The translations under genes were made by a program, and so were the position numbers. Positions 12,135 through 64,000 of a stretch of DNA of 64,000 nt are shown here, in pieces (positions within the stretch are counted from its first letter, which is position 1; each line of letters opens with the position of its first letter). Source of the stretch: a virus (taxonomy: Duplodnaviria > Heunggongvirae > Uroviricota > Caudoviricetes). A model generated the notes under the pieces. The model was not told where the DNA came from. It worked only from the letters and a program-made list of their open reading frames with translations, and did not search any database. The stretch lies in the IMG/VR virus record IMGVR_UViG_2731957818_000004; one strand, given 5' to 3'.

Positions 12135-12401
12135 TTAGGTGAGTTTGAAGTCGTCTATGTCATCAACAAACTCCATATACCTGGCTTCGACACTAGACAG
12201 ACTGATCAGATACGCAAGCCCGTAACTAAGTGAAGTGGGTTGCTCCAGCACAAATTCGAACCCATCATCATGCGTTTTGCCAAGCCAGAATCCCCCACCG
12301 TATTCTTTTTCACGTTGGAAGAAAACGAACTGTCCTGGTATCAGGTGTTTGAGTGCTTCGCCTCTATAGACGATCTCATATTTGGAATTCTTGCTACCCA
12401 T
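12135..12401 (-). CDS. Hypothetical protein.
   Basis: GAGGGTG RBS. Confidence 0.45.
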   Translation of the reverse strand: MGSKNSKYEIVYRGEALKHLIPGQFVFFQREKEYGGGFWLGKTHDDGFEFVLEQPTSLSYGLAYLISLSSVEARYMEFVDDIDDFKLT

Positions 12402-12486
12402 TGTTCACCCTCAACACTGTATGTATAAACAGTAGTTTTTTTTACGGTACTGGTCAACTTTACTGGTTAATTGAATAACAAGGTGG

Positions 12487-51040: not shown

Positions 51041-53401
51041 AATATCGAAGCTCGTTATGTCGGCATTTATTGCCATTGCTTCGGCATAAGTGCGACGCTC
51101 ACCATCAGCGCAAAGCAAACGTGCCGTTTTATGAATTTTCCGCGTAGAACCATCATCAAGTGACACTGTCACCCAGCCTTTCTCCGCTCGCTTAATGAAG
51201 TCGCCACCAATGGATTTCATTTTTTCCATATCTTTTTTCCCGATCGCTTTCCTGACCGAGTCTGCTTCCGCCATTGAGAACCCCGCCAGGATTCGCGTAG
51301 CAGCCATGATTTGCTCCTGATAAATCAGTACGCCGTTTGTATCGCGAGATATATCGTCTAGCATTGGGTGCAAGGAATGTGGTGGCATGAAGCCTTTGGC
51401 CACAGAAACGTAGTCATCCAACATGCCTGACTGGATGGGGCCGGGGCGGAAGAGCGCGGTGGTCGCGACAACCGTTTTAAAGCTCATTGGCTCGATACCG
51501 CTACCCAGATCTCTAAGCAGCTTGCGCATTGGGCCAGATTCCAGCTGGAAGACGCCCTGTGTGTAGCCAGCTGCGAAACCATCCAGAACTTTGCGGTCGT
51601 CGAGTGGAATGGCGTCGAGGTTGATATCGTTGCCAGTGCTCTCTTTGATGTAACGCTTTGCGCTATCCAGCAGATCGAGCGTGGCCAGACCGAGAACGTC
51701 CAGCTTAATCAGCCCCATCGCCTCGCAGTAACGTTTATCGAACGCAATACAGCGAGCATTGCCACGCAGCTCGACGGGCGTGCGCTCTACCAGTGGAACG
51801 CCAGCGACGATCATCCCCGCAGCGTGGCGACCAAAACCACGCATCAGGCTTTGCAGCTTACACGCCGCTTTGAACGCTTCCGGGTATTTCGTGGCGTATT
51901 TGTCCAGGCTGGCCAGTTGCTCGCGCAGCTCTTCCAGCGACAGGCTATCGTCCTCCAGATTCTTGAACTCTTTGGATACCGCCATATCCGCAGCGTCGAC
52001 ACCGTAAATACGCGCAGTGTCACGCAGCGCCGAAGCAGCGCCCAGATAGGTGAAGTTCGGAATACCGGCAACGTAATCTTCGCCATAGCGTTCATTCAGA
52101 TACTCGATCACCTCATGACGACGTGCCTGGCTGAAGTCCAGATCCGCATCCGGCAAGTCGAGACGTTCAGGGTTAATGAAACGCTCAAACAGAAGACCGT
52201 GACGGATAGGATCAACGTTGGTTATGCCTATGCACCACGCCACCAGAGACCCGGCAGAGGAACCACGACCTGGCCCGACAGGAATGCCAGTTTCACGGCT
52301 GTGATTCATCAGGTCGCGCACCATCAGGAAGTAGCCACAGAAGCCCAAGCGGGTCAGCGTGTCCATTTCGTACTTCAGGCGATCAACATACACACGGTGC
52401 TCAGAAGCCGGTGGTGTGTAGCCAAATTCTTTGGTAGTAAGACGCTTGCGTAGCCCCGCGACAGCCAGCTTCATCAGCGTTGCAGGCTCGTCGTCTGCCA
52501 TCTTGGGCAGTGCTGGTGGCAATTCATGCCAGCGCCATGTGCAGGCTTCAATAATGGTGTCCTGCGTTGTTGAGGCCATTGCAGCTGTTACCGGCACATC
52601 CATTCGAACGGAGAAGGCTTTCAGCGCTTCAAGGAGATGGCGGCGACCATTAACGGCGTTATCTCGCTGGTGGGGAATACGCAGACGATGCGGCTGGTCG
52701 ATTTTGATGTTGTTCGTAACCATGTGCGCAATGTCTTTAATGTCAGCGTCGTCGACCGCTTCGTAATAAGCGGGATAGAACGCCACTGGCTCTATTTTCA
52801 GTGCGCTCGCCACTTTCATCGCCCGGACGTTAATCTGGTCGTAGAATGGGGTAGGGTGCGGATAAACCACGCTGTAGAAGTTATCGCGTCCTCCAGCTGT
52901 CACCAGCGTCCCGATAATCTTTGCGAAGTCCCGGCGCTGGAATACACTGCCAATGTCGGACGTCAGCAGGATGATGTTGCCTTTGGCATATGCGGCCGCC
53001 AGCTGGTCAAGTGCCAGACGCGGGACAAAGTAGAATTGCTCGCGCTTGTTCGCTAAGGTCATCAGTTCGCACACGTCGCGATAACCTTGCTCATTCTTTA
53101 TCAGTGCCGTGAAGCAGTAGCTGCGATCACGCACCAATGATTCCATACATCCCCCTGACTCTTTCGCCAGGCGGGCGCGGTGCTCGTATGTCGGATCGTC
53201 GACCACATTCAGCTTAACACCACAAATAACCGCCATGTCGTCGCCAGCGGCACGCTGCAGGGGGATCACACTGGCAATGTTCATGCTGTCAGCGGAAATG
53301 ACAGCGGTGTAGCCAGCGTCTCTCGCGATTCTCACCGCGTTTTCTGCTTTTAGAGCCGACTCTCCCAGGGAGAAGTCAGTTCTGACCATCAGAGCCTTCA
53401 T
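51038..53401 (-). CDS. dnaE: DNA polymerase III alpha (DnaE)-like, N-terminal fragment (PHP-like, palm, thumb).
   Basis: LLFERFINPERLDLPDADLDFSQARRHEVIEYL matches the DnaE palm catalytic region FERFLNPERVSMPDFDVDF...R..VI.Y. About 44 non-homologous residues precede the stop. Confidence 0.8.
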   Translation of the reverse strand: MKALMVRTDFSLGESALKAENAVRIARDAGYTAVISADSMNIASVIPLQRAAGDDMAVICGVKLNVVDDPTYEHRARLAKESGGCMESLVRDRSYCFTALIKNEQGYRDVCELMTLANKREQFYFVPRLALDQLAAAYAKGNIILLTSDIGSVFQRRDFAKIIGTLVTAGGRDNFYSVVYPHPTPFYDQINVRAMKVASALKIEPVAFYPAYYEAVDDADIKDIAHMVTNNIKIDQPHRLRIPHQRDNAVNGRRHLLEALKAFSVRMDVPVTAAMASTTQDTIIEACTWRWHELPPALPKMADDEPATLMKLAVAGLRKRLTTKEFGYTPPASEHRVYVDRLKYEMDTLTRLGFCGYFLMVRDLMNHSRETGIPVGPGRGSSAGSLVAWCIGITNVDPIRHGLLFERFINPERLDLPDADLDFSQARRHEVIEYLNERYGEDYVAGIPNFTYLGAASALRDTARIYGVDAADMAVSKEFKNLEDDSLSLEELREQLASLDKYATKYPEAFKAACKLQSLMRGFGRHAAGMIVAGVPLVERTPVELRGNARCIAFDKRYCEAMGLIKLDVLGLATLDLLDSAKRYIKESTGNDINLDAIPLDDRKVLDGFAAGYTQGVFQLESGPMRKLLRDLGSGIEPMSFKTVVATTALFRPGPIQSGMLDDYVSVAKGFMPPHSLHPMLDDISRDTNGVLIYQEQIMAATRILAGFSMAEADSVRKAIGKKDMEKMKSIGGDFIKRAEKGWVTVSLDDGSTRKIHKTARLLCADGERRTYAEAMAINADITSFDI

Positions 53402-54912: not shown

Positions 54913-57291
54913 TTACCCAAGAATGATACGAGATAGCTCTGTGACGACTGACGGCCCTAACTCTTCTACGCTGTTTACCAGTGCGTAATTTTTGTAGTAA
55001 CGCCGTGGTGCGTCGGTCAGAACGCCGATAGCCATCAAATCGATGTCACTCAACGTCTCAATTTCCTTGGTGACGGTTCGCAAATGCTGATGGAACCCAT
55101 CGCCTGCAGCACATGGCGCCCCGTCGCTCATAACCAGCATGATCTTCTTGTCCTCCATTCGCCCTGCAAACAGAGTCGCCAGCTGCGCGACGCTCTCACC
55201 ATCGACGTTATTGAGCAGGGGGAACGTCTCACACACGCAGCCCATGCGGGCGCGGATCTCTGGAGAGTTAGCTTTCTCATTCCAGTTTTTGATAATGGGC
55301 AGCATTAGCGCCTCGAAGCGAGTAAACCCGCGCTTCGACATGGTTTCATAATCTGGACTACCAAACGTGGTAAAGCCGGTGATGATGTTAGGCACATTGA
55401 TACGATCCAGAGCATCCGCAATGGTGTAGGCGCTTGCGAGTGCCAACTGAATCTTCCTGCCGCCCATTGAGCCGGACAAGTCGATCACTTGCTGGACGCA
55501 CGCGTTCACCGCTCTGTGGTCTTCTTTTTTGCGGAACACGCGGTCGTCGTTCATTGCCAGACGATACAGGTTCGCGCCATGTATCCGCCCACGTCTCTGG
55601 CCTGGGATAAACTGAACTCGGTTGCGGCTGGCGATAGCTCGCTCCAGGTCTTTGGCCAGAGTCGAAGAAACGCCTGCTGACAGATGTTTTTCGATTTTCA
55701 GTTCAAAGAGCTTTCTGCCTTCCGGAACCATGCGGTAGCGATCGACCGGTGAGTGCATCGGGATTGCGCCGAACGTCTTTCTGGTGCGCTTTACATGCTC
55801 TTCAGCCTCATCAATCAACCCGATAAAGTCGTATGAACGATCGTATGGGCGATACTCAGAAAGTGAGGTGCTCATAAGCTCTTTGCTGATGGTGGCCGAC
55901 AGTGCGTCTTCGGTCATTTCGCCTGTTCCGTCTTCCATCTCGTCGAGCGCCTTGAGTGCGTCCTCCAGAGTCATTTCATCCGGAGCAGGAACAAAGCCTG
56001 ATTCACTGTCTTCAGGCGCTTCCGCGGCATCCTCATTTTCTTTACCTTCGCCGTCTGTGTGATCGGCGGCGTCATCTTCCTCTTCGCCTTCTCCTTCGGA
56101 CTCCCCATGACCGGCATCGGAGTCTTCGCCGTCATCACTATCACCATCACCATCACCATCGCCAGCGGCGCCAGAGCCATAACCATCGGAGTCATCGGCG
56201 TCATCGCGAATGCCATCACCAGGCGTTGGAGAGCCAGTGTCATCACTACCACCTTCGTCATCAGAATCACCTGATTCCATGCCGGCATCATCGGATTCTG
56301 GGGTGTCTCCTGATTCCTCTTCGCCTGCTTCTGTATATTTACTTTCTGTATCACTAATTTCTTTATCTTCTGTAGGTAAGTCCTTATATACTGATTCAGG
56401 CAAATCAGAATCCCCAGACTCTTCCTCTTCTGAGGCATCATCTTCTTGCTCTTCCTTGTCGTCGTCTTCGCCTTTGGTACGCTTTGGTGCTGATTCACTA
56501 TGAGTCGGTTCATCACCGGCTTCTGGGGTTTCCTCTGACTCGTCCTCACTCTTCGACGGCTTCCTAGCAGACGATTTCAGCTCTGGTAATTTGCCCTCTG
56601 GCTTGTCTTTCATATCCTGCATGATTTGGGCGATAGCAGCTGCGACCTTCACACAGTCTTCTGTGTTCGACATATTGCGAACGGCCACGTCGATACCATG
56701 CTCTTTGAGCAAGGCCACAGGCTTCTCGATGAGGTGCCAGTGTTCTTCCATAAAGTCGATGAAAGGGCTTTGGCCATCCCAGGCGCGAACGACCGGGCAA
56801 AGGAAGAATTTCAGGAACAATTCACGCTGGTTGCCGTGGCAGATTGAAACCGCCTCTGACACTTTGCCCTTGAAGTATTTGTCGATCACCAGGTTCTGTG
56901 TGGCCAGTAAATTGCGACGGGTTCCGTTGAATACCTGTCCCATTCTGCGTTCAATAAAAACGTCTTCCAGCGCGTTCCAAAGCCCGGTAGACGGAGCCTT
57001 TCCTTTCTCGCGCATCTTCATTGCGACTTTCGGATCAGTAAAGAGGATATGGGCTACCTCATGGTCGAGAAAACCACGTACTGCGTTCATGAGGGTTGGT
57101 GACGCGTCGTCCGGTATAGATGGGATGTTTACCAGCACTGGTTCGCCGCGCCGGTTGTAGCGGACATATGCTTCATTGCCTCGCTCTGCAACAGGTATCT
57201 GTTTGCCTGATAGCATCGCTACAACTCGTTTCACGCAGTCGCGGAAGTCCTGTACCTCTTTCAGCACAGCTCTGGTCATGGCTTTGGACAT
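54913..57291 (-). CDS. CobT-like protein with a long D/E-rich linker and a C-terminal von Willebrand A domain. Start moved to MSKAMT.
   Basis: MIDAS motif VIDLSGSMGG. An acidic low-complexity tract of about 250 aa. AAGGAAA RBS before the ATG at 57291. The track N-terminus translates the class A UTR. Confidence 0.65.
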   Translation of the reverse strand: MSKAMTRAVLKEVQDFRDCVKRVVAMLSGKQIPVAERGNEAYVRYNRRGEPVLVNIPSIPDDASPTLMNAVRGFLDHEVAHILFTDPKVAMKMREKGKAPSTGLWNALEDVFIERRMGQVFNGTRRNLLATQNLVIDKYFKGKVSEAVSICHGNQRELFLKFFLCPVVRAWDGQSPFIDFMEEHWHLIEKPVALLKEHGIDVAVRNMSNTEDCVKVAAAIAQIMQDMKDKPEGKLPELKSSARKPSKSEDESEETPEAGDEPTHSESAPKRTKGEDDDKEEQEDDASEEEESGDSDLPESVYKDLPTEDKEISDTESKYTEAGEEESGDTPESDDAGMESGDSDDEGGSDDTGSPTPGDGIRDDADDSDGYGSGAAGDGDGDGDSDDGEDSDAGHGESEGEGEEEDDAADHTDGEGKENEDAAEAPEDSESGFVPAPDEMTLEDALKALDEMEDGTGEMTEDALSATISKELMSTSLSEYRPYDRSYDFIGLIDEAEEHVKRTRKTFGAIPMHSPVDRYRMVPEGRKLFELKIEKHLSAGVSSTLAKDLERAIASRNRVQFIPGQRRGRIHGANLYRLAMNDDRVFRKKEDHRAVNACVQQVIDLSGSMGGRKIQLALASAYTIADALDRINVPNIITGFTTFGSPDYETMSKRGFTRFEALMLPIIKNWNEKANSPEIRARMGCVCETFPLLNNVDGESVAQLATLFAGRMEDKKIMLVMSDGAPCAAGDGFHQHLRTVTKEIETLSDIDLMAIGVLTDAPRRYYKNYALVNSVEELGPSVVTELSRIILG

Positions 57292-57309
57292 GAGAATTTC
57301 CTTGTTATT

Positions 57310-57325
57310 AAAACAATTTGTTTTC
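57310..57325. promoter_or_regulatory. Class A palindrome with perfect 8-bp arms, in the leader of the CobT/VWA gene.
   Basis: aaaacaatttgttttc. Confidence 0.6.
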
Positions 57326-57400
57326 TGATGTGCGTAATTTATCACTGTACGAACAGGCGACTAAGCTGTTCGTACAGGCTTCTATCGGCAGGAATGTGTG

Positions 57401-57613
57401 TTAAATGGTTCTCACGGCAAGGGAGCCGCAACCAGTATTGATGAGTGTGAAATGTTTATTTTTTAGTTCAAAAGTGAAAACCGTCGTATCAACCATCTCC
57501 ACGGGAAGCTCTTCAGATTCTAGTTCTGTCAGAATCGTCGCAACGCCATCCAGCCCAATCGCATATGCGTGTCCAACCTCAAGGGCGGTCAATTTAGAAG
57601 TTATATTTTTCAT
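57401..57613 (-). CDS. Small hypothetical protein.
   Basis: 70-aa ORF. Confidence 0.35.
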   Translation of the reverse strand: MKNITSKLTALEVGHAYAIGLDGVATILTELESEELPVEMVDTTVFTFELKNKHFTLINTGCGSLAVRTI

Positions 57614-57876
57614 TTCATATCATCCAACTGAACACATTTGAAAGTTCGGCAATACTACTACCTATTGTATCAATATGGAATGCACCTATATCAGATATGT
57701 CTTACTTTTCTCCGTAAGCGAATAGTGACAAATCGCCTAAAAACCATAGTATAATGGCGGTATGCCGGGATTTTGTTCCTACCGAAATTAAATAGATAAG
57801 TCTTTACAACCCTGGCCTTTGCTGTAATATCAGTAAGCACTTACCAGAGATAAACAAAACACGCAAGGTTCACTAC

Positions 57877-58263
57877 ATGGCTACCAACGAAACAGAGATC
57901 AAACAAGGTCGCTACGCAGCTTACATTGACTCGTTAATCACAATCTCGCCTAAAAGTCAGGCTACCATTGCCAAAGAGGTTGGGTACAAGAACGCCAACA
58001 ATCTCTCTCTCATCAAAAGCGGCAAAATCCCACTTCCAGTAGATAAGGTTCGAGCATTAGCCGAAGCGCTGGATGCAGATCCGGTTCGACTGATGCTGAT
58101 GGTTCTGGAAGAACGTCATCCTGAGCTGCTTGAGTTTTTTCGCGAAGAGGGCACTGCACCTCTCTCCGCTGATGAAAAACTCGTTCTAGAAGCGTTCCGT
58201 AACCGTTTTGACGGTCAACAAGGTGCGTCAGAAAAGGTGGTTGAGGCCATCAAGTCACTGTGA
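57877..58263 (+). CDS. XRE-family helix-turn-helix transcriptional regulator.
   Basis: QATIAKEVGYKNANNLSLIKSGKIPLPVDKVRALAEAL HTH pattern. Convergent with the recombinase gene. Confidence 0.55.
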   Translation: MATNETEIKQGRYAAYIDSLITISPKSQATIAKEVGYKNANNLSLIKSGKIPLPVDKVRALAEALDADPVRLMLMVLEERHPELLEFFREEGTAPLSADEKLVLEAFRNRFDGQQGASEKVVEAIKSL

Positions 58264-59361
58264 GAAATTTACACGAATAAGCTCGGTGGCTAGACGATCT
58301 CCCTTGAATTTGTGGTCTATCTCGTCTAAGTCTGTTTGATTAACGATGGATGCGATGTACGTTGAGAAGTTATTCAAGGCGTCTCGCATCTCATCCATAT
58401 AATCGTGGCGGTCATAGACGCGATCTATCCCTTCAAGACTGTGGTTCATAATCTTACGAGCCACCTCCTGACTGATCCCCAGAGCCGGAAAGTAACTGCG
58501 CGCGGTTCTTCGCAGATCGCGCGGGGTGAACGGCTCTAACTCCATCATTTCAGGACGCTCCAGAATCCTGCGCAATGACTGCGCTATGGCCACCTTAGAC
58601 ATTGGCACATCCTCGCCGCGCTTCTTGTTCGACGGGACAAGCCATTGGCTCCCCTTTCCGTACTCGAACAGTTTCTCAACACATTGCCGCATTAAGGGGC
58701 TTAACGGGAGACTGTGCTGTCGGCCCGATTTGTTGCGGGCGCCTTGATTCCATACATCACGCTGAAGGTTGAACTCACTCTTCTTCGCGCGGAGCACTTC
58801 ATCAGGGCGTCTGGCAGCTACAAGACAGAGTCTGGCAGCCCATTTCGTCCCTTCGCAAACGTTGAAGTAGTCCCAGACGTTCCAGAACACCCACACTTCG
58901 GCATCTGTCAGCTTCCGTTCCCGCGGCATGGGCTTAGCGCCCCCGGCGACTTTGTTTAGAGAGATGTCATTCAGCGGAGAGGTTTCAATTACACCCTGAA
59001 ATGCACACCAGCCAAGAAACTGCTTCATCAGCGAGAACACACGTCTGCCCTGGACAATCTTGCCTTCCAGGATCAGCGGGTTAACCAGCTGGTTGACCAG
59101 CACCCTATTTATGTCACTTACCTTAACATCAGCAATGTGTGGCATAACATGTATCAAAACACAATGGACGGCTATCTCCGGTCGACGTCTCGTTATCAAT
59201 AAAGATAAGCGAGTGAATAACATGAATGCCGATGAGAACCGCATGTCCCCATCCAGGTTAATGGTCGATACCGCCGACAGGCCAGCTGCCCATTCGAGAT
59301 AAGCAATGGCCTCGCGTGAGGTGTTTTCGGCTGCGCGTGCTTTATCAAAGGTGTTTTTCAT
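58255..59361 (-). CDS. Tyrosine site-specific recombinase (integrase / resolvase family).
   Basis: R (AARRPDE), DLRRTARS, MNHS and catalytic Y in DRVYDRHDY. A LexA-box-like site lies 22-41 nt upstream. Confidence 0.65.
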   Translation of the reverse strand: MKNTFDKARAAENTSREAIAYLEWAAGLSAVSTINLDGDMRFSSAFMLFTRLSLLITRRRPEIAVHCVLIHVMPHIADVKVSDINRVLVNQLVNPLILEGKIVQGRRVFSLMKQFLGWCAFQGVIETSPLNDISLNKVAGGAKPMPRERKLTDAEVWVFWNVWDYFNVCEGTKWAARLCLVAARRPDEVLRAKKSEFNLQRDVWNQGARNKSGRQHSLPLSPLMRQCVEKLFEYGKGSQWLVPSNKKRGEDVPMSKVAIAQSLRRILERPEMMELEPFTPRDLRRTARSYFPALGISQEVARKIMNHSLEGIDRVYDRHDYMDEMRDALNNFSTYIASIVNQTDLDEIDHKFKGDRLATELIRVNFSQ

Positions 59362-59386
59362 CGCTCACTCTCTGAGTGACGCCTTT

Positions 59387-59406
59387 AACTGTATGTTTGT
59401 ACAGTA
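59387..59406. promoter_or_regulatory. Candidate LexA (SOS) box AACTGTATGTTTGTACAGTA in the recombinase promoter.
   Basis: CTGT-N8-ACAG with an AT-rich spacer. Matches 16 of 20 positions of TACTGTATATATATACAGTA. Confidence 0.5.
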
Positions 59407-59455
59407 TATTAGGCACAAATTTTTATAGGATCAACACCAAAATAGCTGTTTTTGA

Positions 59456-59494
59456 CCAATGATTCCATACTTAATAGGTATGGAATCATTGAGA
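59456..59494. terminator. Perfect 14-bp inverted repeat CAATGATTCCATAC-N8-GTATGGAATCATTG.
   Basis: Seen directly. Lies after the 59533 gene and before the recombinase promoter. Confidence 0.4.
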
Positions 59495-59532
59495 GTCGAT
59501 TTTTTTAAATCTGAGAAACAAGCAAGATGATT

Positions 59533-59949
59533 TTAGCGGTTGTGAAAATCTTCAGCACAGGCTGAAAAGTGGGAGATTAACTGTGTGTTGGCGGCGCTCA
59601 TGAGATCGTGTGCTGGGGTAACAACTGCAAGAATGGAGTATCTGTCCGGATTCCACAAATGCTGTGCATAAACTAAATAAGTATTACTCTTCTTCTGCCG
59701 ATCTGGAGTGCGAGGTGGCCAGGGCTGTTCGTCGGGTAGCTTGATGTGGATGCGAGCGAGTTGAGCGTCTACGGCATAAGGTGGAAAAGTGAAGACGGCG
59801 TCACTGCCGAAGGTATCCGTTGTGGCGTTGTGCTCCTTGCAGTAAATAAATTCCTCTATGAGCTGCTGTTCCAATCCAGGGAACTTTTTGAAAGTGGGGT
59901 CTAAAAATGCGGCGCGTGTATCGGGGTTGATCTCGACAATCAGAGCCAT
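59533..59949 (-). CDS. Hypothetical protein; a resemblance to YafO-type toxins is possible but unverified.
   Basis: 138 aa, translationally coupled to the upstream periplasmic protein gene. Confidence 0.35.
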   Translation of the reverse strand: MALIVEINPDTRAAFLDPTFKKFPGLEQQLIEEFIYCKEHNATTDTFGSDAVFTFPPYAVDAQLARIHIKLPDEQPWPPRTPDRQKKSNTYLVYAQHLWNPDRYSILAVVTPAHDLMSAANTQLISHFSACAEDFHNR

Positions 59950-60464
59950 TTGGTCGAAGCCTCTGTGCCACTGGCTGCCAGAACAGCAAGAGCCGCATGG
60001 CTAATTTCTGATTCGCGAAGAGGGCTAACTGTCAGGATCTGATTAACCAGATTATCGAGATTTTTGGCCCCGTGACGCATCTCAGCGACAGCCCTGCATA
60101 GCTTGTATTCAGTGGAGTTTTTGTCGTAAGACCGGATGATCGACATCTCTGGTAATGCCTGGAATAAGAACTCGGCAATTGCCAGGGAGCCAATTACATC
60201 AGCACGTAAGCCTTCTGCGGCAAACTTTGCCTGCTCAAAATCATGTTCTGCCAACGCATCCAGTCTGGCGTAAATTTCACGGCCATCAGCGGTAACTTCC
60301 TGGATTTTACCCACACTTTCGCGCAGTTCTGCGAGGGATGGTGCGCTCGCCCCTGAAGTAATAGCGCTGCGTTCATGGGTGTGATCTTTGGCATAAGAAC
60401 CGTGTGACAGGCTGCTTAGTGCCAGTGCCACAACCATTGCGATTTTGGTGATTGAGTCTTTCAT
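59940..60464 (-). CDS. Periplasmic protein with a cleavable signal peptide.
   Basis: MKDSITKIAMVVALALSSLSHGSYA signal. Its own sigma70-like promoter TTGTCG-17-TACACT lies upstream. Confidence 0.5.
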   Translation of the reverse strand: MKDSITKIAMVVALALSSLSHGSYAKDHTHERSAITSGASAPSLAELRESVGKIQEVTADGREIYARLDALAEHDFEQAKFAAEGLRADVIGSLAIAEFLFQALPEMSIIRSYDKNSTEYKLCRAVAEMRHGAKNLDNLVNQILTVSPLRESEISHAALAVLAASGTEASTKWL

Positions 60465-60560
60465 GATTTATCTGCCTGCTTTTTGCTGGCTCGTAACTAA
60501 GTGTACGCGTTCCCTGAAACTGCGACAAACAGAAACGGCCCCAAAAGGAGCCGTATTGTA

Positions 60561-60809
60561 TTACAGGGTGCTCGCAAAAGCAGCAAATTCCGTATAACCC
60601 CCGATAGGTTCGCCATTTACGAACACCTGCGGTATGGTCTCCACCGGCTTGCCAACCAGGTCGCTCAACTTCTCTTTGTCGATCCCGGCAGACACAATAT
60701 CGATGTATTCATAATCGCCAAAGCCGTGGCCGTGCAGCTGCTTCGCCAGCTCGACCGCACGTTTGCAGTATGAGCAATTATCCCGTCCGTAGATAACGAC
60801 CTTCATCAC
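60561..60809 (-). CDS. Glutaredoxin / NrdH-like redoxin, the probable RNR electron donor.
   Basis: VVIYGRDNCSYCKRAVELAK CxxC glutaredoxin fold. 82 aa. Confidence 0.7.
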   Translation of the reverse strand: MMKVVIYGRDNCSYCKRAVELAKQLHGHGFGDYEYIDIVSAGIDKEKLSDLVGKPVETIPQVFVNGEPIGGYTEFAAFASTL

Positions 60810-61171
60810 TTCACCTCGTGCAGCTGCTGCTTGAGAAGATAGCCTTCCAGGGGCCAGATTTTGGCAATCGCGTTCTGGCGTGCAATTTTACGTCCGATCT
60901 CCGGATCAAAGTTCTCCGGGCTGGCGCACGCAGACTCGCCGGTTACGGTGTAGCCGTTCTCCAGCACAAGAACGCAGAATGTCAGCAGTTCGAGTGATTG
61001 CGGGGCCGGTTCAGGCTCTTCCTGCTTCAGCCACAACGGTGAGCTGCGATATCCGTCCGCGCCGGTAAAGTAAAATTCGCCTGAGATAACAGCTTCAATG
61101 CGTTCCGGGGTAACACGCGCGGCCGTTTTGCCTTTGGCCACAATCTCTTTTTCGATATCCATATCGGTCAT
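60806..61171 (-). CDS. Hypothetical protein.
   Basis: ATGA overlap with the glutaredoxin gene. Confidence 0.45.
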   Translation of the reverse strand: MTDMDIEKEIVAKGKTAARVTPERIEAVISGEFYFTGADGYRSSPLWLKQEEPEPAPQSLELLTFCVLVLENGYTVTGESACASPENFDPEIGRKIARQNAIAKIWPLEGYLLKQQLHEVK

Positions 61172-61186
61172 TTTGGTTTCCTTACG

Positions 61187-61390
61187 TTAAAAACGAGCGA
61201 TTCGGGCACGAAGAATTAGCTCATAGGCTTTCATCGCGTCCAGCTGCTTAATGAGCATGTTGCGGTCGACTTGAGGGAGACGACTAAAAATCTCGGTGGC
61301 TGTGAAGCACTCCAGCTTGAAAATACGGCGCGACAGATCTTCCTGTTCCTCTATCACACGCTGCTGGTGAGGCAGATATTCTTTGGTCAC
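61187..61390 (-). CDS. Small hypothetical protein, GTG start inferred.
   Basis: GGAGATAAGC followed by a GTG 11 nt after the phoH stop. The track ATG start would overlap phoH by 80 nt. Confidence 0.3.
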   Translation of the reverse strand: MTKEYLPHQQRVIEEQEDLSRRIFKLECFTATEIFSRLPQVDRNMLIKQLDAMKAYELILRARIARF

Positions 61391-61400
61391 GCTTATCTCC

Positions 61401-62174
61401 TTATTGGTAGGCTTCAAGCGCAATTTTGCATAACTCAGACCGTACACAGTCCTCGCTCTCGAACTCGATCCGTCCAACATATTCAGACGGCTTAAAGCGC
61501 TCCATAGCGTCTTCCAGCCCGGATTTGACGCTGCCAGGAAGATCGCATTGGGTGATGTCCCCGTTAACGATAACCGTGACGTTTTCTCCCATACGGGTCA
61601 GGAACATTTTCATTTGTGACGCTGTCACGTTTTGAGCTTCATCCAGAATTACCACAGCGTTTTCGAAAGTGCGCCCACGCATGTAAGCGAAGGGGGCAAT
61701 CTCCACTTTGGCCACCTCTGGCTTTAAGCAGTATTCGAGAAACGAGCCACCCAGACGCTTCTGTAGCACGTCATAGACGGGCCGGAAGAACGGAGCGAAC
61801 TTCTCGCTCATGTCGCCCGGAAGGAAGCCCAGATCTTCGTCTGCTTGCAATACCGGACGAGTCACGATGATCTTGTCCACTTCCTTATTAAGTAGACGCT
61901 GCGCTGCAACGGCCGCGGCCAGGTACGTTTTACCGCAGCCAGCTTCGCCAGTGGCGAACGTTAGCGTTTTGGTATCGAGGGAGATGAGATAGTGGGCCTG
62001 GGCCTCGTTTCGCGCTTCGAGAGGAGAGTTGTCGCGCTTCGGTTTCGGAGGCAGAGCAGGGGCGGCAGCCAGCTCGTCAACGATGATTGTGTCAATTTCG
62101 TAGCCGTGGATGCGTGGCTTTGACTTCAGTGCCTGACGAGCTGCGCGACGCGCCTGTTTACGTTTGTTTCCCAT
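61401..62174 (-). CDS. phoH: PhoH-like ATPase. Start moved to MGNKRKQ.
   Basis: GEAGCGKTYLAAAVAAQ Walker A and PhoH family architecture. AAAGGA RBS. The track N-terminus translates the class B palindrome. Confidence 0.75.
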   Translation of the reverse strand: MGNKRKQARRAARQALKSKPRIHGYEIDTIIVDELAAAPALPPKPKRDNSPLEARNEAQAHYLISLDTKTLTFATGEAGCGKTYLAAAVAAQRLLNKEVDKIIVTRPVLQADEDLGFLPGDMSEKFAPFFRPVYDVLQKRLGGSFLEYCLKPEVAKVEIAPFAYMRGRTFENAVVILDEAQNVTASQMKMFLTRMGENVTVIVNGDITQCDLPGSVKSGLEDAMERFKPSEYVGRIEFESEDCVRSELCKIALEAYQ

Positions 62175-62221
62175 ATTGAGTCCTTTCAAGTGAGTCACCG
62201 AAAGAACTATACCGACAAATA

Positions 62222-62242
62222 ATAGGTAAGTCATTACTTATC
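62222..62242. promoter_or_regulatory. Class B palindrome ATAGGTAAGTCATTACTTATC.
   Basis: Upstream of phoH. Confidence 0.5.
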
Positions 62243-62412
62243 AATTGCATTTTTATGAGACATTCAAGACTCATTGTTTCAGTCTTTGGAAGACTGTTGC
62301 TGCGCGGTTATCGAAACTTGGTTAATGCTAATGTACGCGTACATTAGCATTAACCCTCTCATTCCGGCAACAAATAGCATTACAGCAGTGGGAAGCGACG
62401 AGAACCATCAAC

Positions 62413-62437
62413 AAAAAAGGGGCCGAAGCCCCTTTGG
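62413..62437. terminator. Bidirectional intrinsic terminator GGGGC-CGAA-GCCCC flanked by A- and T-runs.
   Basis: Seen directly. Lies downstream of the tRNA on the minus strand. Confidence 0.6.
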
Positions 62438-62591
62438 ATTTTGCGCTGAAAAAAGTGTAACTACGATGCTAAGAAGCACTATGGTTAAGAACGTCTGCCG
62501 TGTCTATCACAGCGTTGAACGGTCTGGCGACATTTGCGGAGTCTTTCCGTTCGGACGGTGGTGGCGAACTCCAAACCGTTCAGCGCTGTGT

Positions 62592-62666
62592 TGGCGATGG
62601 TGGGTGGACTCGAACCACCGACCAGTTGATTAACAGTCAACCGCTCTACCACTGAGCTACACCATC
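62592..62666 (-). tRNA. tRNA-Asn (anticodon GUU) with an encoded CCA.
   Basis: Manual cloverleaf: acceptor GATGGTG/CACCATC (7 perfect bp), D-arm GCTC-AGTGGTA-GAGC, anticodon stem GTTGA/TCAAC with loop CTGTTAA, T-arm GGTGG-TTCGAGT-CCACC, discriminator G, CCA. Confidence 0.8.
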
Positions 62667-63397
62667 ATTATTCGCGGCGGTACTTGTTCATGGACAACCA
62701 GGCAACCAAGAACTTTCCCGCAACTTGCACTTTACGTTAGTGCCAGACGAGGCTTGTGGCTTGCTCACATAGAGCGAAGATCTGGAATCCTTCTCGGCGG
62801 TTGATGGCCGCCAGATTCTTCGATCTTATTGGATGTATGGAATCATCCATGTTGTGAAACCAGGGGCTACATAGGCAACAATGATTTCACCAGAGGGTTA
62901 AAGAATCCTGCTTTCACAACGTTGAGGCCACTGACCCATTTATGTTCGACCCAACATATTGATCAGTCACTACAGCTCTGTGGAATCACCTGTATGATTA
63001 AAAGAAAAACAGTGACCTCAACGTTGTGCGCTGGCTAACCAAGCCAGCCGGGTTACGTCGCCGCTTTTAACCCAAGATTAAACGACATAAGTAATGGAAA
63101 TGACGTAACAGGATGGACGGTCAGCTGGCTGAAACCGGGATGATGGAATGGAATGAGGAAAACCAACCGCCCATCCTGTTACTTCATCGAATAGGGCATG
63201 GGTGGTGCAACATGCCCTATCCTGCGTTCTGCAATCACACTCGCTCAGTGTGTCCCATTTCGGTGACGAGGCTGGAAACTGACCTCGCTGGTGTTTGGCT
63301 TCTTAGGCTACTGCCAGGTACGTATCTTCGTTTGCAGTTATATTTAACGTTCAAACAGTCGCGTCTCAACGAAAACAAATGAACCTTATACATAATA

Positions 63398-63418
63398 GAT
63401 AAGTAAGTAAATACTTAT
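63398..63418. promoter_or_regulatory. Class B-like GATAAGTAAGTAAATACTTAT.
   Basis: Seen directly. Confidence 0.4.
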
Positions 63419-63720
63419 TTTTCTGTTACTCGTTCAGTTGCTATCTTTTTGATCAAACTCACCTTCTGTTCCGGCGTTCTCGTGATGATGGCCGTAAAAC
63501 GCTTCGCTTGGATAGTGATAGTTTCGTTCTCCTTCAGTTCGCCGTAGTGAGTCTCCAGCAGAGAACCCAGGCGCCACAGACCGTCGTCTATGCGTTTATG
63601 GCTGGCAAATCTGATCAGCAGTAGCTTTACGATTAACTGACCAATGTAAAAGGCATATCCGACGCCGGCCGCCACGAGGTAGGTTGCCAGCCACCAGTCG
63701 AAAGAGGTCAAATTGCTCAT
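63415..63720 (-). CDS. Membrane-anchored protein.
   Basis: N-terminal TM segment WWLATYLVAAGVGYAFYIGQLIVKLLLI. Confidence 0.4.
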   Translation of the reverse strand: MSNLTSFDWWLATYLVAAGVGYAFYIGQLIVKLLLIRFASHKRIDDGLWRLGSLLETHYGELKENETITIQAKRFTAIITRTPEQKVSLIKKIATERVTEK

Positions 63721-64000
63721 TTCTGCACTCCCGTCTCGTGAACAACCCGATACAGACGCTTACCGATGCGAAGCGTTTTGGTTTTCAGTTCCTGCCTGAC
63801 CAGATCGGGGTCGTCTCAGAAAACGGAATCTATGGTCACTCCCGTTTTTGCAACACCGATTTTGACGACAAGTTGGCTTGCTTGAATCTATCCGGCGTCT
63901 GAATGGGATTTTATTCCCGCGCCTTGATGAGTTCCGCGCCTGATGAACCTCCAGAAAATATACGGCTTCAATGAGCCTTTCCGTTTTACAGGTTCCTCAA

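Follow-up and report, generated by a model that had tools for sequence, protein, structure and literature searches.

A tyrosine recombinase and an adjoining 35-bp palindrome: a candidate Cre/loxP-like module under predicted LexA control in SSU5/pHCM2/pMT1-type phage-plasmids

Phage-plasmids of the SSU5/pHCM2/pMT1 type carry a gene for a tyrosine recombinase (int) that appears to be preceded by a LexA (SOS) box. On which DNA does this enzyme act, and why would a recombinase of an extrachromosomal element be tied to DNA damage? Here we address these questions for the int locus of a 64,000-nucleotide (nt) stretch of viral DNA (IMG/VR record IMGVR_UViG_2731957818_000004, Caudoviricetes), which is referred to throughout as the window. 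The window is part of an SSU5/pHCM2/pMT1-type phage-plasmid because the region matches both IncFIB plasmids and phages. It is 93.9% identical to IncFIB plasmids of Enterobacter and Citrobacter (110-125 kb), with weaker matches in plasmids of Salmonella, Yersinia, E. coli and Klebsiella, and the phage matches are the Escherichia phages Cyrano and CMS-2020a and the Klebsiella phage-plasmids. The int family is carried by about 940 sequenced plasmids, among them S. Typhi pHCM2, Y. pestis pMT1 and the common phage-plasmids of Klebsiella, E. coli and Enterobacter, which also bear resistance genes. An original prediction, made from the nucleotides of the window alone, had proposed that the recombinase could be either a Cre-like dimer-resolution enzyme or an inversion enzyme. 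Our literature search found nothing that defines the site, function or regulation of this integrase. We put forward, with moderate confidence, that Int and a 35-base-pair (bp) palindrome upstream of its gene form a Cre/loxP-like single-site module, which would keep the plasmid monomeric and be derepressed during the SOS response.

Int (58255-59361, minus strand) is a protein of 368 amino acids (aa) with core-binding and catalytic domains and without an arm-binding domain. It matches Pfam PF00589 (Phage_integrase) with 38.8 bits against a cut-off of 27.1 and PHROG 1 (integrase) with an E value of 6e-45. The proposed catalytic residues, assigned by motif spacing and not by residue-level structural alignment, are R185, K211, R281 (at the His-II position), R284, H307 and Y316. 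Their spacing of 26, 70, 3, 23 and 9 residues compares with 23, 73, 3, 22 and 9 in lambda Int, where the catalytic residues are R212, K235, H308, R311, H333 and Y342. R185, K211, R284 and Y316 are invariant in 26 aligned sequences, down to 22% identity, while a 20-member family alignment has R281 invariant and H307 near-invariant (at least 90%). An AlphaFold2 model built from database homologues has a pLDDT (predicted local distance difference test) score of 84. Foldseek placed lambda Int (1z1b) as the best match to this model (E 2.7e-7), followed by Tn1549 Int, Xer proteins (XerH) and IntI; the match to Cre (E about 0.02) was weaker than that to lambda Int. A single-sequence search of the PDB with Int returned nothing meaningful and a profile search gave weak XerH and integrase-domain matches only. 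On this evidence Int is a tyrosine recombinase of two domains whose catalytic set is intact. The original prediction of a tyrosine recombinase is thus borne out by the Pfam match above cut-off, the catalytic residues and the lambda Int-like predicted fold, and the catalytic tyrosine on which it depended is present throughout the alignment.

The Int family is a tight one, with 113 clusters at 44% identity or more, all of 340-380 aa, and all from Enterobacterales wherever the source names a taxon. Below the family, identity falls to 27-34% and the relatives are P4-type integrases with the PF13356 arm-binding domain. In Pfam searches PF13356 was not found in the Int family and was present in this nearest outgroup. 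The N-terminal 70 aa or so of Int are helical in the AlphaFold2 model and differ from the lambda N-domain. In NCBIfam the only match to Int is PRK09692, aligned to residues 71-337, and the IntI family was not matched.

A candidate core site for this recombinase lies directly upstream of int. The proposed core recombination site (59457-59491) is a 14-7-14 inverted repeat, in which the perfect 14-mers CAATGATTCCATAC (59457-59470) and GTATGGAATCATTG (59478-59491) flank the 7-bp spacer TTAATAG. The conserved 11-bp arm core is TGATTCCATAC. The perfect 14-bp inverted repeat had been seen in the original prediction, where it was taken as a mere spacer element and a search for a cognate site, possibly lox-like, was suggested; the repeat is itself the lox-like candidate. 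In 12 relatives from plasmid and phage records it always lies upstream of int, down to 45% Int identity. The arm core changes from TGATTCCATAC in close relatives to TGACTCCAGAC in distant ones, and both arms change symmetrically. The spacer is AT-rich and constant at 7 bp among the relatives. TTAATAG and its complement CTATTAA dominate the spacers across the family, in either orientation relative to int, and the orientation differs even between the window and Buttiauxella, where the Ints are 91% identical. To judge from these alignments, the spacer at the centre of the palindrome has evidently been inverted in the course of evolution.

The association of the repeat with int holds well beyond these relatives. 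The pattern TGAYTCCAKAC-N7-GTMTGGARTCA was searched in one genome per species for 185,579 species and gave 58 matches, all of them in Enterobacterales. An Int homologue starts 58-164 nt from the site centre in 57 of the 58, and the remaining match is cut by the end of its locus. Most matches lie on megaplasmid-sized contigs of Pantoea, Rahnella, Erwinia and Ewingella that have no phage genes and lack xre, the regulator gene adjacent to int in the window; about 45 megaplasmid species have the site-int pair with neither xre nor a LexA box. Because site and int stay linked in these megaplasmids, the repeat follows int, and not xre or the cargo genes on its other side. The palindrome also fits a core site, because two binding elements flank a 6-8-bp overlap and Int has no arm-binding domain. 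The palindrome is thus very probably the site of Int, as far as comparison of sequences can tell.

A repeat in this position could have served transcription instead, as a terminator or insulator between the cargo genes and int or as the operator of another regulator. It lies between two transcription units on the same strand and can form a 14-bp hairpin, which symmetric arm changes would preserve too, and solitary copies of the arm elsewhere in the window resemble dispersed regulator-binding sites. However, the stem is followed by a T-tract on neither strand, and the terminator scan made no call on either, which led us to reject the terminator reading. The arms are kept as sequence, beyond mere pairing, in relatives at 57-97% identity despite diverged flanks. 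The loop never departs from 7 nt and has a conserved sequence, present in both orientations, and the repeat accompanies int into genomes that have neither xre nor any cargo operon. A role in termination, insulation or operator binding is therefore most improbable.

If the palindrome is the site, the number and location of its copies limit what Int can do with it. The window and a complete 112-kb relative each hold one full site, and no second full or degenerate site was found in either when up to 6 mismatches in 22 were allowed. (One scan reported two places per record, which most likely reflects the palindrome matching both strands.) No full site without an adjacent int was found in the 185,579 species genomes. 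Among 5,426 complete E. coli genomes, 252 contain the int-site unit; it stands at 255 places, every one on a plasmid and none on a chromosome. SSU5-type phage-plasmids were likewise exclusively extrachromosomal in the genomes examined by Pfeifer et al. (PMC9600943). The annotated relative NZ_CP019891.1 has just two further site-specific recombinases, both of the serine type: one adjoins a Tn3-family transposase, and the other lies in an inserted block that the window lacks. Together, the single site, the consistent absence from chromosomes and the absence of resident recombinases other than these two argue against both an inversion switch and chromosomal integration. An inversion enzyme, one of the two functions first proposed, is accordingly unlikely with a single full site per replicon. 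The other, Cre-like resolution, is favoured by one site per replicon, the missing arm-binding domain and the extrachromosomal location.

These data also bear on the possibility that Int is a classical integrase, the palindrome being the attP of an SOS-induced chromosomal integration and excision system. Databases annotate Int as "site-specific integrase", its nearest out-of-family relatives are the P4-type integrases, and the site adjoins int, as is usual for attP. Yet the 255 E. coli copies include no chromosomal one, and this phage-plasmid type is extrachromosomal in the published survey (PMC9600943). The genome search found no full site without an adjacent int, a degenerate attB lying outside its reach. 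The arm-binding domain is absent, and the annotations and the sequence as read show neither an arm-type site nor an excisionase, no search aimed at either having been made. Moreover, a fully symmetric site would give directionality through the spacer only. We consider an integrase of this kind very unlikely.

The second question concerns the control of int. The LexA box AACTGTATGTTTGTACAGTA (59387-59406) matches 16 of the 20 positions of the LexA consensus TACTGTATATATATACAGTA and lies 26-45 nt upstream of the int ATG. The original prediction had reported this near-consensus box, which stands, at 22-41 nt from the ATG, which does not. A putative int promoter (59406-59434, minus strand) consists of a -35 element TTGATC (59429-59434), a 17-nt spacer and a -10 element TAATAT (59406-59411), and the box covers both the final base of this -10 element and the point where transcription would be expected to start. 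TTGATC-17-TAATAT matches at 8 of 12 positions, under the threshold of the promoter scan; both hexamers and their spacing are conserved in relatives. Sites with at least 16 of 20 consensus positions number two in the 64 kb, against 0.02 expected from shuffles. The bare motif CTGT-N8-ACAG is found twice against 0.83 expected, which is not significant by itself. Among 14 close phage-plasmid relatives, defined by an Int at least 58% identical and an xre neighbour, 13 have CTGT-N8-ACAG at the same place (-32 to -45) with varying inner 8 nt, and the fourteenth, Buttiauxella, has CTGA-N8-ACAG. The box is absent in the megaplasmid clade and is therefore a phage-plasmid-specific addition.

Expression data are available for a homologue of int in Cyrano. 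Public RNA sequencing (RNA-seq) data of E. coli LF82, tabulated by Misson et al., include this gene, CYRAN_44 (PMC9928086, S1 Table). Its basal level in LB is 5 times the local background, and it rises from log2 5.6-6.1 to 10.3 in macrophages at 6 h, or 19-25-fold, a condition that the authors describe as genotoxic and SOS-inducing (PMC9928086). In the same data repA is flat and most structural genes are low (PMC9928086). The induction of CYRAN_44 is consistent with LexA control and does not prove it. Footprinting, with the box kept in 13 of 14 relatives while its inner bases vary, and the fit of the Cyrano data agree with the LexA control that had been predicted, and LexA probably does control the int promoter. 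Our literature search found nothing on LexA in SSU5-type elements.

A second and stronger LexA box, CACTGTATGTATAAACAGTA (12415-12434, 17 of 20 positions), sits 14 nt upstream of an 88-aa open reading frame (ORF; 12135-12401, minus strand) that heads a run of small genes. This box is conserved in NZ_CP019891.1 (position 5922 of its stretch). By analogy with N15, the 88-aa gene may encode an antirepressor or be an early gene under SOS control. Cyrano also encodes a LexA-like S24 peptidase resembling UmuD/HumD (CYRAN_98, OV696614.1 89311-89700), which is strongly induced in macrophages, from 7.2 to 12.2 log2 (PMC9928086, S1 Table). On this evidence the SOS-responsive genes of these phage-plasmids may form a wider set.

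The genes around int raise a further possibility for the promoter. Relatives have their genes arranged in the order phoH, gp49, glutaredoxin, variable genes, int, xre (convergent), a 70-aa gene, a gene for a cobT-like VWA protein, an AAA ATPase gene and dnaE. The xre gene (57877-58263, plus strand) encodes an XRE-type helix-turn-helix regulator of 128 aa (PHROG 8, E 1e-11; weak match to Pfam HTH_31). It converges on the 3' end of int, as originally described, with an overlap of 9 nt. In every phage-plasmid relative it accompanies int as a conserved partner, and it is absent beside int in the megaplasmids. The promoter scan placed an xre promoter, TTTACA-16-TAATAT, in a block that ends in a palindrome (57803-57844, plus strand). 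This invariant palindrome, GTAAGCACTTAC (57833-57844), directly follows the -10 element and is kept from Klebsiella to Yersinia, and the whole promoter-palindrome block is invariant or near-invariant in a 7-way alignment. The palindrome is a candidate autoregulatory operator of xre. The homologue in Cyrano, CYRAN_45, which the lysogen expresses, carries the annotation "putative repressor" (PMC9928086).

Downstream of int on the same strand is the conserved 70-aa gene (57401-57613, minus strand; PHROG 2627, E 4e-40), which is likely co-induced with int. Its Cyrano homologue CYRAN_46 rises from 4.3 to 10.8 log2 alongside int, and cobT rises much less (PMC9928086). Between the 70-aa gene and the cobT-like gene is another perfect inverted repeat of 12 bp, CTGTACGAACAG and CTGTTCGTACAG separated by 9 nt (57345-57377), which is conserved in phage SSU5. 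Expression in Cyrano falls steeply across this point, with CYRAN_46 at 10.8 and CYRAN_47 at 5.9 log2 (PMC9928086). The repeat may be an attenuator or a binding site.

Phage SSU5 (NC_018843.1) lacks the entire block of about 57380-62590, comprising the 70-aa gene, xre, int, the site, the cargo, glutaredoxin, gp49 and phoH. There the tRNA-Asn gene directly follows cobT, and the block is therefore an indel relative to SSU5. Among plasmid-resident relatives the cargo alone varies. The original prediction had taken the int region for a separately acquired module. That description suits the two-gene operon upstream of int, which is swappable cargo, and it suits less well int and xre, which are a persistent pair in about 940 plasmids, though SSU5 is without the block. 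If xre encodes a repressor, the group's type phage SSU5 may be a variant that a deletion has made defective in lysogeny.

Might the LexA-controlled promoter then be a lytic switch, its transcript reading through int, antisense over xre and into the 70-aa gene, so that the repressor is lowered and Int is a passenger or has a second role? The tail-to-tail arrangement of int and xre with its overlap, and the absence of any terminator between them in the terminator scan, would allow this. In a long run of minus-strand genes xre alone is on the plus strand, and SSU5, which was isolated as a phage, has neither gene. In Cyrano, whose xre homologue is the putative repressor of the lysogen, int (19-25-fold) and CYRAN_46 (26-88-fold) rise together as cobT rises 4-8-fold (PMC9928086). 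Cyrano and SSU5-like elements of E. cloacae are induced by ciprofloxacin or mitomycin C (PMC9928086, PMC9600943). On the other hand, the repressor role of the XRE protein is putative, and the xre signal is also up in macrophages, in data that may not be strand-specific. The roughly 45 megaplasmid species with a site-int pair and neither xre nor LexA box indicate that the recombinase functions independently of such a switch, and the gene behind the box at 12415-12434 is a more conventional candidate for an SOS antirepressor. A lytic switch is possible and, in our estimate, rather unlikely.

The other side of the site is occupied by cargo. The cargo slot extends from the stop codon of the glutaredoxin gene to the inverted repeat and measures 790-1780 nt in most relatives; its far boundary in the window is the intrinsic terminator of glutaredoxin (60535-60554, minus strand), found by the terminator scan. 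Its contents differ by lineage. Some relatives have another YafO pair with a colicin-immunity gene or a RelE/StbE pair, and Cyrano has a single moron expressed 723-fold over background. In pMT1 the slot holds caf1R-caf1M-caf1A-caf1, the operon for the F1 capsule of Y. pestis, and in Cronobacter a chaperone-usher system, an S6 peptidase, an omptin and a chorismate mutase. From these comparisons the two-gene operon of the window is cargo and the sole swappable part of the block, and the site would be the fixed edge of the slot between glutaredoxin and int.

The junctions between conserved and variable DNA lie close to this edge. In relatives with different cargo, homology breaks 0-30 nt from the arm. 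For pairs of phage-plasmids with different cargo, homology running at least 1.5 kb through int stops either 2-3 or 16-26 nt outside the arm core. The second class of breakpoint follows a short conserved A-tract, part of the conserved A/T-tract flank TTTAAAAAAATCGACTCTC (int strand; 59492-59517) on the cargo side of the site. The int-side junction is 0-3 nt from the arm in pMT1, Cronobacter and Kluyvera; in E. coli records the break falls at query position 103 or at 121, the latter being the first base of the arm. Of 139 alignable pairs from the megaplasmid clade, 117 have their break no more than 60 nt from the site, and 90 of these 117 have no further flank homology in 2.5 kb. The junctions are consistent with what recombination at the site between replicons would be expected to leave.

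Another reading is that Int mainly serves an SOS-gated platform for cargo exchange, loosely comparable to intI/attI of integrons: after DNA damage it would recombine with sites on other replicons or circular DNAs and so insert or swap the cargo beside int. The cargo differs in nearly every lineage, the junctions in pMT1, Cronobacter and Kluyvera fall at the arm itself, the recombinase appears LexA-controlled as in integrons, and a spacer common to clades at 45% Int identity would permit cross-recombination. Each plasmid, however, has one full site, and no second site or site remnant was found at the far cargo boundary with up to 6 mismatches in 22. In pMT1 the caf cargo has its left junction about 44 nt ahead of a solitary half-site position; no site-like sequence is found at this junction, and this candidate was set aside. 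Cargo units are complete operons, each under a promoter of its own and in mixed orientation, and not promoterless cassettes; no IntI match was found in NCBIfam; and the same junction pattern is expected if selection merely preserves the site. Cargo exchange of this kind seems unlikely to us. Equally doubtful is a version in which the Int site is an SOS-triggered docking point for the exchange or capture of whole operons among SSU5/pHCM2/pMT1-type phage-plasmids, with the oriented solitary half-sites as part of the same machinery, and we give as little credence to its extension to the megaplasmids of Pantoea, Rahnella and Erwinia, there without LexA control. If a docking point were the case, the positions of caf1, the Cronobacter protease/fimbrial island and the toxin and moron genes at the arm edge would be the outcome of site-specific recombination and not of chance. 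The lytic-switch and cargo-exchange roles are compatible additions to a resolution module and not exclusive rivals of it.

Solitary copies of the arm form another feature of the locus. With one mismatch allowed, the arm 11-mer has 6 matches in the window against 0.82 expected, and 0 of 100 shuffles reached 6. The extended form ATGATTCCATACATC recurs at 53138, 58745 and 62835, and a one-mismatch copy is at 56272-56282. The first half-site, TGATTCCATAC(ATC) (53138-53148, plus strand), lies inside dnaE and points to the core, and the same position is occupied in relatives. The second (58745-58755, plus strand) is inside int, where it encodes V-W-N-Q of a conserved beta-hairpin; it is kept in relatives down to 57% identity and may reflect coding constraint or coincidence alone. 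The third (62835-62845, minus strand) is non-coding, near tRNA-Asn, and opposite in orientation to the three across the core. In the window and four relatives all half-sites, which lie within about 7 kb, point toward the core, with opposite orientations on its two sides. Pairs of half-sites about 1,000-1,020 nt apart recur in viral contigs that are apparently SSU5-like. No solitary copies were found in loci of the TGACTCCAGAC type, and Rfam found nothing at the inverted repeats or half-sites over 57000-64000. An origin by nested insertion was rejected, as the bases that follow (ATC...) mismatch the core spacer. Whatever the case for the copy inside int, the pattern of copies argues that the set as a whole is not coincidence.

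The Cre/loxP-like module that we prefer would work as follows. We infer that two Int monomers bind the inverted TGATTCCATAC arms and that Int cleaves at the edges of the 7-bp spacer. Int would recombine two copies of the site in a dimer or cointegrate of the plasmid-prophage, restoring monomers, and multimer resolution would be the selected function. In the SSU5/pHCM2/pMT1 lineage LexA, bound at the box overlapping the int promoter, would keep basal Int low in the lysogen, and DNA damage would derepress it. DNA damage would be the very condition in which RecA recombination yields multimers and phage-plasmids are induced. Elements of this type encode their own RecA, and the copy number of Cyrano is about 5.5 per cell (PMC9928086). 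Any two family members could recombine at the site, which would make it the fixed edge of the cargo slot.

Several points weigh against such a module. Nothing separates multimer resolution from cyclisation after infection or from cointegrate formation. The solitary half-sites are unexplained by a Cre/loxP-like model, and the His-II catalytic position of Int, as placed by motif spacing, is an invariant Arg. A resolvase has no obvious need for repression; no earlier case of a plasmid resolvase under LexA control is known to us, and our literature search returned none. The breakpoints at the site could equally mark the start of purifying selection in a permissive intergenic region. Finally, toxin-antitoxin and some structural genes of Cyrano also rise in macrophages, which are not a clean SOS experiment (PMC9928086).

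The cargo of the window itself is a two-gene operon, and both of its originally predicted ORFs, for a signal-peptide protein and a coupled 138-aa protein, are present with an overlap of 10 nt. The sigma70-like promoter assigned to the operon, TTGTCG-17-TACACT (60500-60528, read by eye), is kept in two relatives but matches at only 8 of 12 positions, below the scan threshold. The downstream gene (59533-59949, minus strand) was correctly called as encoding 138 aa, and its identity had gone unrecognised: the protein belongs to the YafO toxin family (Pfam PF13957, 67.5 bits against a cut-off of 25), and its relatives are annotated as YafO family toxins. Against the NCBIfam YafO model it scores 46.5, under the equivalog cut-off of 153. 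The upstream gene (59940-60464, minus strand) encodes an orphan protein of 174 aa in the antitoxin position, with a Sec-type signal-like N-terminus, and from the overlap it is apparently translationally coupled to yafO. No family match was found for the 174-aa protein in Pfam, NCBIfam or PADLOC, and PADLOC returned nothing for all five proteins. It forms 7 clusters only among 5.8 billion proteins, with a conserved N-terminal hydrophobic segment. One of five AlphaFold2 models is confident, a helical bundle, and a PDB fold search with it gave generic helical bundles only. A homologous pair of 175 aa and 138 aa, with the same 10-nt overlap, adjoins dsbA in a conjugative IncFIB plasmid (1983-2917 of its stretch). 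Because the pair recurs there, the pairing of YafO with the 174-aa protein is real, and the partner is not a YafN-type antitoxin. An exported partner for a cytoplasmic toxin is odd, and yet plasmid YafO toxins are found paired with a signal-like protein of about 175 aa. Beyond the slot, Rfam gave a match to the Yersinia small RNA Ysr251 (61406-61599, plus strand; 76 bits, below the gathering score of 100), antisense to the phoH-like gene (61401-62234) at its 3' end and to the first part of a neighbouring 97-aa ORF.

Naming a 35-bp candidate site makes the function of Int directly testable. If our preferred reading is true, a compact and apparently orthogonal recombinase-site pair is added to the list of tools, and the direct wiring of a plasmid-maintenance recombinase to LexA is new to the SOS regulon of mobile elements. 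The site also provides a hypothesis for the accumulation of virulence and toxin cargo at one fixed junction in these elements.

The closest parallel is Cre/loxP of P1. Both systems have a tyrosine recombinase without an arm-binding domain, inverted arms of 13-14 bp flanking an asymmetric spacer of 7-8 bp, a single site beside the recombinase gene, and a plasmid prophage as host that must stay monomeric. They differ in that Int has no detectable sequence homology to Cre (Foldseek E about 0.02), its site has a spacer of 7 bp and not 8 bp and borders a cargo slot, and its His-II residue is Arg. To our knowledge no LexA box has been described for cre, and the int promoter has one. ResD/rfsF of F and Rsd/crs of the Salmonella virulence plasmids are plasmid tyrosine recombinases with a nearby cis site that resolve multimers. 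Int shares with them the plasmid setting and the nearby single site; unlike ResD and Rsd, its family derives from P4-type integrases, is about 100 aa longer and is SOS-controlled, by prediction, in the phage-plasmid lineage. The P4/CP4-57-type integrases are the nearest relatives outside the family at 27-34% identity, but Int has an unrelated helical N-terminus of about 70 aa in place of PF13356. Neither an attB nor chromosomal copies nor an excisionase was found for Int, the last without a dedicated search. With respect to the heterobivalent lambda/P4 type, the half-sites described here carry core-arm sequence and lie kilobases away.

The operon in the slot recalls YafNO of the E. coli dinB-yafNOP operon, with a YafO toxin domain in a 138-aa protein and an overlapping upstream gene in the antitoxin position. 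It differs in that a 174-aa orphan with a signal-like N-terminus replaces the YafN/Phd-like partner, and the score is far below the equivalog cut-off. In integrons the intI gene has a LexA-controlled promoter, and the int locus resembles them in the LexA box overlapping the promoter of a tyrosine recombinase gene and in the recombinase site beside variable cargo. Unlike integrons it has no attC sites, cassette array or IntI match; its cargo consists of complete operons and its site is a simple double-stranded palindrome. The regulatory side has counterparts in the N15 antirepressor AntC and in LexA/gp7 of GIL01, where host LexA is wired into a plasmid prophage (PMC11652158). The same direct wiring is suggested here by the predicted boxes, with the difference that one of the two precedes a recombinase gene and not an antirepressor gene or a lytic promoter.

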